From an uncultured Verrucomicrobiae bacterium (GTDB taxonomy: Bacteria; Chlamydiota; Chlamydiia; Chlamydiales; Rhabdochlamydiaceae), in the NCBI GenBank assembly GCA_963718565.1, contig OY970364.1, positions 1,728,001 to 1,792,000 on the forward strand: a stretch of 64,000 nucleotides of DNA, written 5' to 3'. Position numbers and translations under genes: made by a program. Under the pieces are notes generated by a model, which was given only the letters and a program-made list of their open reading frames with translations, was not told the DNA's origin and made no database searches. Of this stretch, positions 5,002-60,512 are shown one piece after another; the stretch's first letter is position 1; each line of letters begins with the position of its first letter.

Positions 5002-5856
5002 ATGCAACTGTACGCTCTGAAAAATTCCGCGCCAATTTTAGCTTCCAAAGCGGAAAAAAGTAAAGATTATATTTGTCCTGAATGTTTATCCACCGTGCGC
5101 GTCAGAGGCGGGCCCCTCCGCCAACCCCATTTTTATCATCTCTCCCTTCCCAAACAATGCCGCCAACACGAAAAAAGCCAAGAACATATTCAACTACAGC
5201 TAAAACTGCTCGATCTCATTGCATCAGGGGATGCACAGATGGAATGTCAATTCCCCGCTATTGGGCGAATAGCGGACGTCGCTTGGAACGCAAAAAAACT
5301 CGTCTTTGAAATTCAATGTTCTCCAATTCCTCTTGAAGAAGTGCAATGCCGCACGCTCGATTACGCATCGATAGGATACGAAGTCATCTGGATTTTGCAT
5401 GATAAGCAATTTAATCAAAAAAACCTCTCAGCGGCAGAAAGCTTTTTGCGCAATGGCCCTTGCTATTTCACAAATCTCGATAAGATGGGATACGGGATTG
5501 TTTATGACCAATTCGAGGTTCTTAAAAGTAGTAAGCGCCTCTTTAAAGGGCCTCCACTCATCGTATCGCCCGATCTTTTCTTCCGACTGCCCGCAATGGC
5601 CCCTCCTGACATCGCTTTGCCGCAAACGCTGCTCTGCCGTTTTACAAATTGGAAATGCTATATGCAGGGAGATCTGCTGCATTGCCTGTTAAAAGAAGGA
5701 AATTTACCAAGCGCTGTAAAAAAAATGTTGGCAATAGAAAGTCAAATTTTAGAGGAAAACACAAATGGCATGAACCGACTGCCACTCAAAAAACTCGTGG
5801 CGAGCAGCTATCGATTTGCCATCGATTATTTCACAAAAAAGCTCTCAAGTTCTTAG
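5002..5856 (+). CDS. CoiA-like competence protein (Zn ribbon plus PD-(D/E)xK-like domain)
   Basis: CPEC...HFYH...C...ESQEH-like Zn-binding region, RIADV, FEIQCS, GYEVIW motifs. Confidence 0.8.
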   Translation: MQLYALKNSAPILASKAEKSKDYICPECLSTVRVRGGPLRQPHFYHLSLPKQCRQHEKSQEHIQLQLKLLDLIASGDAQMECQFPAIGRIADVAWNAKKLVFEIQCSPIPLEEVQCRTLDYASIGYEVIWILHDKQFNQKNLSAAESFLRNGPCYFTNLDKMGYGIVYDQFEVLKSSKRLFKGPPLIVSPDLFFRLPAMAPPDIALPQTLLCRFTNWKCYMQGDLLHCLLKEGNLPSAVKKMLAIESQILEENTNGMNRLPLKKLVASSYRFAIDYFTKKLSSS

Positions 5857-6013
5857 AGTCAGTCCACAAACCTGTTACTTTGATTTTTGATAAATTTTGC
5901 CTTTGGTTTTAATTCGGTTCCGCAGGACATAGTTGATTAACTAGACCAAGGAACCGAATTAAAACCAAAAGCAAAAGGCGCAAAAAGCAACGTAACTAGA
6001 TTTGTGGACTGAC
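5855..6013. repeat. Palindromic element, family A (copy 1)
   Basis: Arms GTCAGTCCACAAA...TTTGTGGACTGAC, core CCGCAGGACATAGTTGATTAACTAGACCAAGG, flanked by TCTT on both sides; homologous to 15490 and 41005. Confidence 0.9.
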
Positions 6014-6023
6014 TCTTAGAGGC

Positions 6024-6494
6024 TTATTTGACAGTACCTAACATCATGCTCCTGGCAAAGAAAAAATAGATAAAAACGCCCACTGTCAACAGAGCATGTA
6101 AGCACCGTTTCTGGGGAAACTCTTTTTCTAAGCTGTTATGCGCCGGATTACTTGTCCGATACCAGGTTGTCCTGCTTTTAGACCCGTTGATCCTCATATA
6201 ATTTTCGGCTGCAAATCTATTGAGGAACTGCGGTTTTTCAAAAATTGTCTTACCATGATAGATGACACCTTCAAGCTCGAACTGATAGCAAGCTTCTAAA
6301 GCAAACCGCGAGGAGTTGAGCTCGCAAACCTGCCAATTTAAGATTTTTACTGAACTTTGCGCATTCAAGCGAAAAAATTTCCACATATCGTTTGCAGCAA
6401 TCCCAAAGAACCACAAGGCAATCGCCCCAGAGATCACCGATAAAATAAGCCAAAGACGGTAAAAATGCCGAGCCATGGAAATAAAAATTTTCAC
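6024..6494 (-). CDS. Hypothetical membrane protein (N- and C-terminal TM segments, DUF3592-like layout)
   Basis: 156-aa ORF with two terminal hydrophobic helices, divergent from rpsT. Confidence 0.65.
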   Translation of the reverse strand: MKIFISMARHFYRLWLILSVISGAIALWFFGIAANDMWKFFRLNAQSSVKILNWQVCELNSSRFALEACYQFELEGVIYHGKTIFEKPQFLNRFAAENYMRINGSKSRTTWYRTSNPAHNSLEKEFPQKRCLHALLTVGVFIYFFFARSMMLGTVK

Positions 6495-6571
6495 AATTTG
6501 AGTTTGACGAATTATGTCAAGCTAGCTATATTACTTTCCATTAGAAAAATCCTTAAGGAATAGTTTTTACT

Positions 6572-6871
6572 ATGGCAGAAGAAAAAAAAGAAAACGGGGA
6601 AAAGAAAGCAAAGCAAAAAAGACCGACCGCTTTAAAAAGAGATTTGCAAAGCCAAAAAAGAAATCTGAAGAATCGCTCGTTCAAAGCAAAAGTGAGCTCA
6701 GCAGTGCGTTCTTTTCAAGAATCAATTTCACAGAAAGACTCCGGTGCGGCAAAAACTAAACTTAACGGCGTCTATAGTTTGATGGACAAAGGCGTTAAAA
6801 AAGGGATTTTCAAAACGAATAAAGCAAACCGCGTCAAGTCCCGCCTTCACGCACTGACTCAACGCTCATAG
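6572..6871 (+). CDS. rpsT: 30S ribosomal protein S20
   Basis: TALKRDLQSQKRNLKNRS...DKGVKKGIFKTNKANRVKSRL. Confidence 0.95.
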   Translation: MAEEKKENGEKKAKQKRPTALKRDLQSQKRNLKNRSFKAKVSSAVRSFQESISQKDSGAAKTKLNGVYSLMDKGVKKGIFKTNKANRVKSRLHALTQRS

Positions 6872-6963
6872 TCTGAGTTTTTTGAAGAAGATATTTTACC
6901 ACCCGCTTCGCAAGCTCGCTCGAGAGCACAGAGGGGAAATTAAGACCTCATGCGGCGAATTCT

Positions 6964-58150: not shown

Positions 58151-59083
58151 ATGCTATTGCAAGCACCGATTAAGAAAACAACATCGGATCAAAAATTTGA
58201 AAACTCCCATTTCTTTTTTCATCGAGATCGAATTGAGCAAGAAATCGCTAAGAGCATCCTTTCCTTTGGCGAAAAGACCAAACTTCGCGATGCTTGCGAA
58301 TATGCATTGACAGCGGGTGGCAAACGTTTTCGCCCATTGATCGTTATTCTCATTGCTGAAGCGCTTGGGAATGGACTGAATGTTTATGAATCGGCACTTT
58401 CTGTCGAATTTTTTCATACAGCTTCCTTGATCGCAGATGATTTGCCTTGTATGGACAATGATGATGAGCGGAGAGACAAGCCTTCGTTGCATAAAGTCTA
58501 TGGCGAAGCGATTGCACTTTTAGCAAGTTATGCTTTGATCACGGCAGCATTTGAAAAAATCCATTCCAATGCGACGATAATGCATAAAGCTCATCCTCCC
58601 TTTTGTCATTTCAGCGACCGTGTCTGTTCCCTTGCCTTAGAGGCAGCGACCTATTGTGCTGGAATTCTAGGGGCCACAGGCGGGCAGTTTCTCGATCTTT
58701 TCCCGCCTAATCAAAATCTCGACACCGTTAAGCAAGTCATTTATAAAAAGACGGTCACTCTTTTCCAAGTCTCCTTTGTTTTGGGATGGTTGTTTGGCGG
58801 AGGAGATGTCAGCAAATTGGAAAAAGTGAAAAAGGCAGCCTATCATTTTGGGATGGCTTTTCAAACGGCTGATGATTTAGAGGATATGCTTCAAGATGAG
58901 AAGAAACAGCGTGAAATGAGTATCGCAAGGCTGATTGGAAAAGAGCGCGCGCTTGCTCTTTTTGATGAGGAAATGTGTCACCTTCGTAAAGACCTTCAAG
59001 ATCTTGGCATTCTAACGCCATCTTTTGAGAAAATGTGCGATATCTTGACTCGATATGCCATTGAGAACGTTAAAGGTCCTTAA
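58151..59083 (+). CDS. ispA: Polyprenyl (geranyl/farnesyl) diphosphate synthase
   Basis: GGKRFRP, SLIADDLPCMDNDDERR, GGQFLD, KKT, FQTADD. Confidence 0.92.
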   Translation: MLLQAPIKKTTSDQKFENSHFFFHRDRIEQEIAKSILSFGEKTKLRDACEYALTAGGKRFRPLIVILIAEALGNGLNVYESALSVEFFHTASLIADDLPCMDNDDERRDKPSLHKVYGEAIALLASYALITAAFEKIHSNATIMHKAHPPFCHFSDRVCSLALEAATYCAGILGATGGQFLDLFPPNQNLDTVKQVIYKKTVTLFQVSFVLGWLFGGGDVSKLEKVKKAAYHFGMAFQTADDLEDMLQDEKKQREMSIARLIGKERALALFDEEMCHLRKDLQDLGILTPSFEKMCDILTRYAIENVKGP

Positions 59084-59092
59084 AGTTGTTCT

Positions 59093-60151
59093 TTAAACTT
59101 CAGCAAGTTCAGGCGCTCCGGAAGGTTCTTTGAGGGGGAGCCCTTTCCCTTCTGCGACTTTAACAAAGATCGCTTTTTCAATTTCGTCAATGAATTTGGG
59201 ATTCTTTTTCAACTCTTCACGGGCGGCTTCTCTACCTTGGCCAAGACGGTTGCCTCCATAGCTGAACCAAGTGCCTTTCTTCTCGATAATGCAAAGATCA
59301 GTCCCAAGATCGAGAATGGATCCGATGCGGGAAATTCCTTCATTAAAGAGAATATCGAATTCCGCAGCTTGGAATGGGGGGGCCATTTTATTCTTAACGA
59401 CTTTGACCTTGACGCGGTTGCCGACATCGCTATTGTCTGGACCTTTAATGCCGCCAATACGGCGAATGTCCATTCGGATCGAAGCATAAAATTTGAGCGC
59501 TCGACCTCCCGTTGTCGTTTCGGGGTTGCCAAACATCACACCGATCTTTTCGCGGATCTGATTGATGAAAATGGCGCATGTGTTGCTTTTAGAAAGAGTG
59601 GCTGTCAATTTGCGCAAAGCTTGCGACATCATGCGCGCTTGCAGTCCCATAAACGAATCCCCGATTTCACCTTCGAGCTCGTTTTTGGGCACGAGGGCGG
59701 CAACCGAATCAATGACGATCACATCGATTGCATTGGAGCGCGCCAGCATCTCAGCAATGTTGAGCGCCTCTTCTCCGGAATCAGGTTGAGAGATCATCAG
59801 TTCATCTAAATTGACGCCAATCTTTGCTGCGTAAGAGGGATCGAGGGCATGTTCAGCATCAATATAAGCAGCAATGCCGCCATTTTTTTGCGCGTTGGCG
59901 ACAATATGAGTGGCCAGTGTCGATTTCCCCGAAGATTCGGGACCGAAGATTTCAACGATACGCCCTCGTGGCACTCCACCAATGCCAAGAGCAAGGTCTA
60001 GAGTGATCGCTCCCGTTTTAATGACGCTCATCTCGCGCGCAGCTGAATGTTTGCCGAGAGTCATAATTGAACCATCGCCAAATTGTTTTTCAATTTGCGC
60101 AATTGCTGCTTCTAATGCTTTTTTCTTTGCAGAATCATTGGATTGAGACAT
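59093..60151 (-). CDS. recA: Recombinase A
   Basis: [44 protein letters not shown]. Confidence 0.99.
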
Positions 60152-60230
60152 GACACCACCCTTGGATTAATCTTGTTTCGGTATATCTGTTAGTGTAATC
60201 GCTAGCAGTGTTATTTCTCAAACAGACTCT

Positions 60231-60406
60231 TAGGCATCGTAAGCCAATAACGGTCGCGTTTCCGCTGCGCTGGCATCTTCACCTTTGCACCCGGCTGCAT
60301 CGGCCATGTGCTTGCACATGGCCTGTTTCGCCGCCGGCGAAGCCTGATGCAAATCTGAAGCGCTAGCTTTGCGGAAACGCGACGGTTATTGGCTTACAAT
60401 GCCTTA
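60231..60406. repeat. Palindromic element upstream of recA
   Basis: GGCATCGTAAGCCAATAAC / GTTATTGGCTTACAATGCC; CCGCTGCGCTGGC / GCTAGCTTTGCGG; apical GGCCATGTGCTTGCACATGGCC; CTTA on both flanks. Confidence 0.85.
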
Positions 60407-60441
60407 GACAAAAATCTTCATTCAATGTACTTCTATGATTA

Positions 60442-60512
60442 GAGGGAATTGCAAAACTCCTCGCCGCATAAAATCATCGATTTTATGCGGCGAGGAGTTT
60501 TGCAATTCCCTT
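60442..60512. repeat. Short family B element (71 bp, core deleted)
   Basis: GAGGGAATTGCAAAACTCCTCGCCGCATAAAATC and its inverse; 4-bp duplication ATTA. Confidence 0.88.

Follow-up and report, generated by a model that had tools for sequence, protein, structure and literature searches.

Three lineages of hairpin MITEs in a chlamydial genome, each with a conserved interior fold and exchanged ends

The long imperfect hairpins dispersed through a stretch of Rhabdochlamydiaceae DNA (64,000 nucleotides, here termed the window; unprefixed positions refer to it) are genuine MITEs (miniature transposable elements with inverted repeats), and they belong to three core lineages rather than to one. Comparison shows that within each lineage an interior fold, apparently under selection on one strand, is held at a constant 33-36 nt from tips that have themselves been exchanged among insertion sequence (IS) families. 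A fixed distance between the centre and borrowed tips suggests that the fold itself helps these elements to move. In genome G000, 167 copies make up 1.3% of the sequence.

The elements and their core lineages

Long imperfect hairpins, or hairpin ends, are present at all 14 positions of the original prediction, which had placed them between 5855 and 60512. Three covariance models were built, R1 for core I, R2 for core II and R3 for core III.

Core I comprises the elements that start at 5856, 8469, 15491, 41006, 50491, 56155 and 60442. Family A ends are carried by three of them, all on the + strand: 5856..6015, with an apical CAT hairpin at 5928 (59.7 bits with R1 on the + strand vs 27.8 on the other); 15491..15650, whose apex terminates in AA in place of AG (60.5 vs 29 bits on the two strands); and 41006..41166 (41.4 vs 19.4). 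The element at 56155..56315 (+), of end type F7 and with TA-type flanks, lies directly upstream of a tRNA gene and scored 90.9 vs 41.4 bits on the two strands with a held-out R1; at this point a read contig of run X5 jumps over 168 nt, a weak observation from a single contig. Family B is represented by 8469..8650 (+) and 50491..50672 (-), both with IS1182-type ends and a 4-bp duplication, and by the internally deleted 60442..60512, which retains its arms only and has lost the apex.

Core II includes E4 at 27152..27379 (+), with TA-type ends and an optional inner insert that follows the apical hairpin (R2, 49.6 bits), and E3 at 44383..44550 (+), with a TA duplication, a CAT apex at 44464, 36-nt arms, tandem purine loops and a side loop of the DNA mini-hairpin type (R2, 91.1 bits). 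E3 is inserted in the apex region of a host hairpin, F5 (44303..44642, +), which forms a family of its own and has no CAT apex. Filled and empty F5 differ by 170 nt, or 168+2, and 170 nt are skipped at this locus by a read contig of run X5 (again a single contig, and weak).

Core III comprises E1 at 8416..8760 (+), with TA-type ends and an apical CAT hairpin at 8671; the E2-type element at 39915..40127 (-), with TA-type ends and a shorter inner insert (R3, 58 bits); and F8 at 60233..60403 (-), whose interior is the same as that of the TA-ended 39915 type. E1 is split by the family B element nested inside it at 8469, and its uninterrupted copies scored 34-39 bits with a held-out R3; filled minus empty E1 is 186 nt, which equals 182+4. 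Empty copies thus exist of both host elements, E1 and F5. Two further elements stand apart. Family D, at 8840..10328, contains an IS3-family element (approximately 8951-10289), and its proposed membership in a common superfamily was not borne out, as no shared core was found. At 57320..57425, an internally deleted TA-ended element has lost its core and holds a tiny B-end palindrome.

The five apical hairpins that had been quoted as a shared, covarying motif are present, with CAT beginning at 5928, 8564, 8671, 44464 and 56227, and both asymmetric bulge motifs (CTGCG opposite CTTTG/CCTTG, and the AAAAG(C/G) type) recur. The CAT-stem-loop-AG apex itself occurs in seven of the 14 elements, distributed over all three lineages, and is missing from the other seven. 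By their first-predicted start positions, the carriers are 5855, 8414, 8469, 41005 (with a 5-nt loop), 44381, 50491 and 56153; besides the AA-terminated 15490, CAT is paired with ATG at 27151 and 60231, and 8840, 39913, 57320 and 60442 have no such apex. Genome-wide, the pattern CAT-4bp-4nt-4bp-AG was found 78 times vs 25.9 expected from flank frequencies, with 52 occurrences inside these element families and 26 outside by our own tally. As a short sequence the motif is thus unremarkable in this genome, and it carries information only through its apical placement.

The covariance models do not support one core common to all elements: each finds its own lineage and scores the others near the baseline for generic hairpins. 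R1 gave 44383, 60233 and 39915 19-30 bits, equivalent to unrelated IS66-type hairpins (30-33 bits). R2 gave 56155 13 bits (E 0.14, with the apex in register) and family A 9.6, and R3 gave 5856 30.7 bits and others 14-25 against a baseline of 17-21.

Ends, target duplications and autonomous partners

The prediction that a core is retained while ends and duplications are exchanged around it was borne out by comparison, within each of the three lineages. Among 30 core I loci, 23/30 have IS1182-type ends and 7/30 F7-type ends; core II is associated with TA, TTA/TAA, CATA, 5-, 6- and 9-bp duplications; and core III has TA or TTA. The predicted duplications of families B (4 bp, exact in 36/43 full-length copies), D (9 bp at 8840) and E (TA) hold, and that of family A is TTA rather than TCTT/CTTA, being exact at 5856 and imperfect (TTA/TTG) at 15491 and 41006. 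The best readings for 56155 and 60233 are TA and TTA, respectively. At G000:1235429, a chimera combines the left end of IS1182 with half of a long B element.

The proposal that the ends derive from several IS families held for two end types, IS1182 and another DDE element. Over 17 nt, the B ends (including those of 8469..8650) are identical to the ends of intact IS1182, and the L264 end matches the end of a DDE element in G000 over 16 nt. In B/G and L264 alike, similarity to the IS is confined to the terminal inverted repeat (TIR). Both B and G have IS1182-type ends and the 4-bp duplication seen in intact IS1182 relatives, and at 79/80 loci of those relatives the core scored <30 bits or had no match. 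Decayed IS1182 pieces with B/G-type ends are present in G000, where the IS1182 transposase was found as fragments only and where no IS5-type or intact IS1182-type helper was detected with PF13586 or PF05598. Most end types had no autonomous IS match; types A, F7 and F8 had no autonomous partner in G000, and the TA-ended families have only ~5-6 terminal bases in common with the resident IS630. A 378-aa transposase of G000 had no match in five drafts with other end types, in a kind of assembly where repeats often remain unassembled. No coding homology and no transposase were found in the 160-260 bp hairpins themselves.

A recognising protein, as implied by the original prediction, found no support in the form of a dedicated gene nearby. 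Recognition and movement of the core by an enzyme of its own, HUH/RAYT-like or IS110-like, with the IS-like ends being incidental, is very improbable. HUH enzymes bind strand-specific imperfect hairpins, and the optional inner insert found in several families would suit such an enzyme. Against it, Y1 HUH transposases (PF01797) had no match in G000 (95% complete; positive control in 6/14 genomes), duplications track end type as with DDE enzymes, and no neighbouring gene recurs beside 80 core II loci, where the sole large cluster of open reading frames (ORFs) is the element's own frames and neighbours had no match to nine G000 transposases.

Covariation and arm length

Two-sided changes were observed in 39/67 pairs of core I (14 elements) and in 29/54 pairs of core II (18 elements). 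In 43 core II sequences, 87% of cells are paired vs 23-43% in slid controls, and in a core II alignment gathered by BLAST rather than by motif, the invariant columns lie in and beside the loops. Core II was found in 21/121 Chlamydiota genomes and in some Proteobacteria. Arm mismatches are close to even between G-T and A-C (54 vs 40). In palindromes generally, compensatory changes can come from arm-to-arm conversion without selection.

The arm between tip and core measures ~36 nt (33 in core III) across end swaps. It is exactly 36 nt at 25/30 core I loci and within 1 nt at the others, and for core II elements with non-palindromic duplications of at least 3 bp it was called at 36-37 nt in 15/23 cases. 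In the TTAACCC end class the terminus may be placed at either 32 or 36 nt, and in core II elements from Proteobacteria the arms measure 26 nt.

These features bear on the improbable reading that the fold has no function, in which shared ancestry plus arm-to-arm gene conversion would create the covariation, nesting and deletion would supply new ends, and imperfect palindromes would simply outlast perfect ones. Nesting is indeed common, core-less internally deleted copies exist (57320, 60442), and F10, a near-perfect hairpin MITE without a core, reaches ~ten copies. Conversion should erase loops, yet it is at the loop bases that conservation is highest, across families of Chlamydiota and into Proteobacteria, and random nesting and deletion would not hold a 36-nt arm across end types.

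Strand asymmetry and the nature of the fold

In 18 representatives, purines account for 66-90% of the unpaired bases of one strand and for 9-31% of those of the opposite strand, the purine-rich strand being defined as the richer of the two; the non-core hairpins F12 and F13 show the same lean, more weakly. Side loops were GNA/GNNA closed by GC in 17/26 scored cases, and one was GNRA. Mini-hairpins of the GNA/GNNA class are reported to be far stabler as DNA than as RNA and to be present at priming sites on single-stranded DNA (ssDNA) [PMC13037366].

With respect to transcription, orientation was assessed with crude ORF calls. Read-in transcription is unbiased (37 vs 36), as are the 23/167 copies inside long reading frames (13 vs 10), and where the flanking genes are co-directional, sense copies number 34 and antisense copies 20 (p=0.08). 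Structured RNA typically has purine-rich loops, and this last count would also fit a fold selected as RNA, whose co-transcribed copies would be harmless or useful through RNase III/E processing or avoidance of termination. Reported effects of RNases on ERIC and Correia transcripts provide a precedent [PMC2229807, PMC10969869]. We nevertheless regard an RNA function, which the original prediction had entertained, as fairly unlikely: read-in and in-gene counts are balanced, the side loops are of the DNA type rather than GNRA, no Rfam family reaches its gathering score, and the fixed tip-to-core distance would be left unexplained.

The folding strand is modestly biased with respect to replichore (103 vs 64, or 62%; p=0.003 in one of four tests, element copies only), with p=0.04-0.55 per lineage, and the lagging-strand template's losing stable folds could be an alternative cause. 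The bias fits the DNA-fold reading favoured below and also an unlikely one in which the core serves as a signal for single-strand initiation or for the loading of a protein (primase, RNA polymerase or exclusion of SSB) and converts a copied-out strand to double strand, so that amplification would be partly separate from the helper IS. Strict conservation of loop sequence is compatible with recognition by a protein, and the ssDNA priming sites of phages and plasmids are reported to contain mini-hairpins of this class, which are poor binders of SSB [PMC13037366]. Against this reading, either one tolerant protein or three would be required for the three unrelated loop sets.

A fold that may aid transposition

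The reading that we favour, at about an even chance, is that ordinary DDE transposases act in trans on these non-autonomous MITEs to move them, and that a fold of ssDNA or cruciform DNA would aid transposition. Mobilization in trans is proposed because of the TIRs, the family-specific duplications, the nested pairs of empty and filled sites and the ends identical to those of an IS. A single-stranded fold is preferred because the side loops resemble DNA mini-hairpins and no transcription bias is apparent. The selected object would then be the fold of single-stranded or cruciform DNA, in which fold-back may be nucleated by the mini-hairpins together with the purine loops and the tandem G-A pairs. 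The arms would thereby pair into a duplex end of transposase length, and no looping would be needed for both ends of an element of 160-185 bp to meet. If this benefit is independent of transposase family, it would explain why the core survives end swaps. Recombination with an IS end, or nesting and deletion, may furnish one arm with a new end, which fold-back repair would then copy onto the opposite arm.

A broader version is more speculative, and we hold it only tentatively: the cores may be transposase-independent ssDNA machines in which a 36-bp ruler is combined with a strand-specific fold, and which either offer both ends as preformed duplexes, for cruciform transposition without looping, or load a host priming protein. 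A change of tip alone would then let one lineage use IS630, IS1182, IS5-like and other transposases, and such a machine would have crossed from Chlamydiota to Proteobacteria.

The interior of a bacterial MITE is generally regarded as decayed filler, and why ERIC-like elements retain elaborate folds has long been asked. In the present elements, the interior persists through changes of end, stays at a constant spacing from the cut site and contains DNA mini-hairpins. Searches of the literature for MITE covariation and for common interiors with different TIRs (supplements excluded) returned only general reviews or unrelated work. The elements lend themselves to direct testing: one core comes with several natural end types, an intact IS1182 could serve as helper, and arm length can be varied around a predicted value. 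Should the fold boost transposition by any DDE enzyme, it would explain MITE amplification and provide a portable enhancer for mini-transposons; should the ssDNA-machine reading be true, it would represent a general, undescribed step by which bacterial MITEs come to outnumber their helpers.

Comparison with known elements

Type II bacterial MITEs share only TIRs with an IS [PMC10969869], and examples include RUP with IS630-Spn1 and Nezha with ISNpu3 [PMC2229807, PMC3184786]. The present elements resemble them in size (160-260 bp), TIRs, duplications, many copies, lack of a transposase and IS-matching ends (B, L264). They differ in having one interior common to end types with differing duplications and in the constancy of its distance to the tip, whereas the cores of the MITEs compared in one review are stated to have no similarity [PMC3184786]. 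With the IS1182 family itself, B/G share only the 17 nt and the 4-bp duplication; the core is absent from the IS ends, and the elements have no transposase.

Rickettsia palindromic elements, compared by description only, are likewise palindromic and in part located within long reading frames, and end swapping around a conserved core does not feature in the passage describing them [PMC2229807]. REP sequences and REPINs are palindromes of 20-40 bp with a terminal GTAG or CGTC tag [PMC3733652]; unlike these RAYT-associated repeats, the present elements are 4-8 times longer and have DDE-type duplications, and G000 gave no match for a Y1 HUH gene. Searches of Rfam returned only tRNAs and generic miRNA-hairpin scores far below threshold for the window and, for 18 element loci, one sub-threshold match of the latter kind and none at gathering score.

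A similar design is seen in ERIC/IRU elements, which carry internal inserts. Twelve E. coli K-12 copies have TA-type ends, a covarying apical hairpin and purine loops on one strand (34/39 vs 9/47 and 38/43 vs 10/53 purines, strand vs strand). The resemblance in TA ends and a strand-biased purine hairpin applies to the TA-ended families only, and ERIC is 127 bp vs 160-185 bp here. As to homology, R2 and R3 had no significant match at the 12 E. coli ERIC loci, whole-element similarity of ERIC is weak to core III (z ~4-5, ends included) and nil to core I, and an ERIC-end pattern search in E. coli stayed at chance level (10 vs 10 in the control).

Finally, SINE families exchange partner-derived ends. 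The CORE-, V-, Deu-, Ceph- and MetaSINE superfamilies are grouped by a conserved central sequence whose function is described as unclear [PMC4824008]. A central domain common to families with different ends is the shared feature, by analogy and not homology: SINEs are eukaryotic retroelements that move via a LINE from a polymerase III transcript, whereas the present elements are bacterial DNA with TIRs and DDE-type duplications.

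Three core lineages

The original prediction assigned a single core to about a dozen hairpin elements in the window. The long hairpins and the five apices quoted for them are indeed present at the predicted positions, and they resolve into three cores when three covariance models are each scored on held-out families. R1, whose training set was 14 B/G elements from the genus, gave the held-out element 56155 (elements are named by window position) 90.9 bits on the folding strand, which carries the purine loops, versus 41.4 on the opposite strand; for three family A elements the values were 60.5, 59.7 and 41.4 versus 29, 27.8 and 19.4 bits. 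Unrelated hairpin-ended remnants at 11797-11925, 14748-15368, 51163-51293 and 56766-56873, which we take to resemble IS66-type ends, served as a baseline and scored 30-33 bits on both strands, and neither the E families nor 60233 rose above it with R1. Among held-out elements, R2 (43 core II sequences) matched only 44383 and 27152, and R3 (12 E2/F8 sequences) gave E1 34-39 bits. Because of these scores, core I is assigned to families A, B, G and F7 (5856, 8469, 15491, 41006, 50491, 56155 and 60442), core II to E3 and E4 (27152 and 44383), and core III to E1, E2 and F8 (8416, 39915 and 60233); E5 was placed in core II by pairwise similarity.

All three cores have a small apex, C-A-T opposite A-G-G with an A-G mismatch. 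They also follow a common strand-biased design: among 18 representatives, purines make up 66-90% of the unpaired bases of one strand, chosen as the richer, but 9-31% of those of the opposite strand. The predicted apical motif, CAT-[stem-loop]-AG(G), occurs 78 times in the genome versus 25.9 expected, and 52 of these occurrences lie inside the element families by manual count. It was found in seven of the 14 elements listed in the prediction; of the others, two pair CAT with ATG, one has AA in place of AG, and the motif is absent from four. Among 75 non-redundant core II interiors, CAT/AGG accounts for 18, CAT/ATG for 16, CCT/AGG for nine and other combinations for four, the pattern not fitting the remaining 28, so the motif is the commonest variant rather than an invariant one. 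The 4-bp duplication of family B was borne out in 36 of 43 full copies. Element 8840 does have its 9-bp duplication, but it lacks the shared core and is not a member; it is interrupted by an IS3. Elements 57320 and 60442 carry internal deletions.

Host genome and nested insertions

The source genome (G000) is a single contig of 2.28 Mb with 43.6% GC. Scanning it for inverted repeats gave 265 long hairpins, many of them belonging to families with multiple copies. Abundant ISs include IS630-type (15 near-identical matches), ISAs1-type, two IS3 types, IS256 and IS607, together with two further DDE elements. The IS607-like element, in about 12 copies, encodes a 514-aa TnpB/Cas12f-like protein (G000:820380-822339). 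Within the window, tandem, partly repeated Ser/Thr kinase genes (23226-29870) are split at about 24862-26908 by a 2-kb IS with a 9-bp duplication and a 474-aa protein without a Pfam match. The chromosome reaches its cumulative GC-skew minimum at about window position 55500 (G000:1783501), which makes 55734-56150, or its vicinity, the probable site of the replication origin. Nearby, the 549-aa product of 54085-55734 may be a deubiquitinase, as it has an otubain-like peptidase C65 domain (E 5.5e-12); lone B-type ends lie at 52354-52387 and 55738-55774.

Elements and ISs are frequently nested in each other, and in several cases the insertion lies at the apex of the hairpin that received it or close to it (window 8414-8762, 8840-10328 and 44303-44642; G000:1650042-1650376 and 1951961-1954100). 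Nested pairs yield clean empty sites, B adding 182+4 nt to E1 and E3 adding 168+2 nt to F5. Defined points within the B, E4, E5 and E2 families can hold an insert of about 55-75 nt that has hairpins of its own (window 27252-27320; G000:1347-1604, 872696-872938 and 1638408-1638698).

Origin and exchange of ends

B-type ends also bound decayed elements of the source genome, in which a reading-frame fragment matches IS1182-family transposases, and intact IS1182 relatives from metagenomes share the terminal 17 nt, several with a 4-bp duplication. Core I was not found by R1 in these intact relatives: across 80 loci, 14 matches were obtained, all below 30 bits except one short hairpin of 46 bits. 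Intact relatives (L272-L281) have their own subterminal hairpins of 60-80 nt, which lie just internal to the TIR at one or both ends and are not related to the three cores. A core II element of another genome (L264, in G151) shares its first 16 nt with the end of an 1181-bp DDE element of the source genome. The ends derive from ISs and the core does not; one copy in the source genome, in which the left end of an IS1182 is fused to half a long B element, is a possible intermediate. For most other end types, the comparison with ISs found no partner.

Elements related to those of the window come mostly from genomes of Chlamydiae, Rhabdochlamydiaceae or Parachlamydiales, and the host is accordingly taken to be an environmental chlamydia. 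With R1, matches were obtained in 51 of 91 genomes from the family, and of 30 core I loci examined, 23 have IS1182-type ends and seven F7-type ends, four of the latter with the full B side hairpin. Core III is common to TA-ended E2 and TTA-ended F8 within the one genome. The core II loop motif, scanned for in 185,579 genomes, has at least 107 loci, and among the matches listed 77 of 108 lie in long hairpins; R2 had matches in 21 of 121 Chlamydiota genomes, which belong to five of 24 families sampled. The core II interior is found between TA-duplicating ends or TTA/TAA ends (the latter in many copies in G094), and, mostly as single examples, with CATA, 5-bp, 6-bp and 9-bp duplications (L230, L223, L244, L145, L096). 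Outside Chlamydiota, it occurs with CTAG-type flanks in Rhodanobacter, a betaproteobacterium and Sinimarinibacterium (15 matches in the last genome). In Sinimarinibacterium (L197-L213), left and right 4-bp flanks are often one base apart (CCAG, CTAG, CTGG), resembling the TTA/TTG flanks of family A. In two chlamydial genomes, core II elements with different arms (L121 and L165) lie between the same two genes, HPr-like and peptidase-like as labelled by eye, which would be explained either by an old insertion that altered its arms without moving or by a hot spot.

Fixed arms and the conserved fold

Within a lineage, the first conserved loop lies at a constant distance from the tip, no matter which tip is present. 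The core I arm measures 36 nt in 25 of the 30 loci and deviates by at most 1 nt in the others; it is 34-35 nt in family A, and the arm of E2 and F8 is 33 nt. In core II, 98 of 132 aligned elements have a left inverted repeat that stops 36-39 nt from the motif, palindromic target bases accounting for the excess, and 15 of 23 non-palindromic duplications were called at 36-37 nt; proteobacterial arms are 26 nt, one helical turn less. Among 60 of 142 elements, selected for pairing in the 36-nt register, arm complementarity is 0.98 at position 36 and has dropped to 0.33 three bases outward. Arms remain complementary well beyond the 17 nt common with the IS; plain double-stranded transposition would presumably have no need of this.

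Two-sided changes affect 39 of 67 pairs in core I and 29 of 54 in core II. In the 43 core II sequences, whose flanking motif columns were fixed by the search pattern, 87% of cells are paired versus 23-43% with slid partners, and the covariation score lay above that of every shuffle, although kinship inflates this test. A BLAST-gathered alignment, not motif-selected, still has its invariant columns in or beside the tandem purine loops. Arm-to-arm conversion can imitate covariation, yet should wipe out loops rather than keep them; neutrality of the structure is considered improbable.

Of 26 scored cases of the side hairpin that core II can carry, 17 are GNA or GNNA with two closing G-C pairs and one is GNRA. 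This hairpin is of the DNA mini-hairpin type, described in PMC13037366 as far less stable as RNA and as occurring at single-strand priming sites. Selection at the RNA level seems unlikely; elements are read into in either orientation (37 versus 36), and the Rfam search gave no family match. The folding strand is in lagging-strand sense in 103 and leading-strand sense in 64 of 167 copies (p=0.003, without an autonomous-IS control), while 51.6% of genes are leading; the lean has the same direction in all lineages and is strong in none. That the core is a priming or protein-loading signal is judged a little less improbable than neutrality. A separate mobiliser is least probable of all: of the HUH/RAYT type proposed for checking, no Y1 HUH gene is present in the genome, and no gene recurs beside the elements at 80 loci.

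These elements thus have the anatomy of MITEs, conserved cores of three kinds, IS-derived ends that have been exchanged, and arms of fixed length. There is a roughly even chance that the core is kept because its fold, as a single strand or cruciform, turns the paired arms into a transposase-length duplex and brings together ends that, in so short an element, would not easily meet by looping. Such a benefit would work with any DDE enzyme, which would explain why the core is kept while tips change.

Comparison with known elements

The elements belong to the type II MITEs, as that class is described in PMC10969869. ERIC has the same design, but no detectable homology. MITE cores compared in a review were reported to be unrelated to one another (PMC3184786), and no shared MITE cores were found in the literature searched, most subscription papers being outside its reach. 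The nearest conceptual match is a SINE superfamily with a shared centre (PMC4824008). To these, the window adds a division into three cores, a connection with IS1182, arms of fixed length and the signature of DNA mini-hairpins, making these elements modular bacterial MITEs with a mechanism that is open to test.
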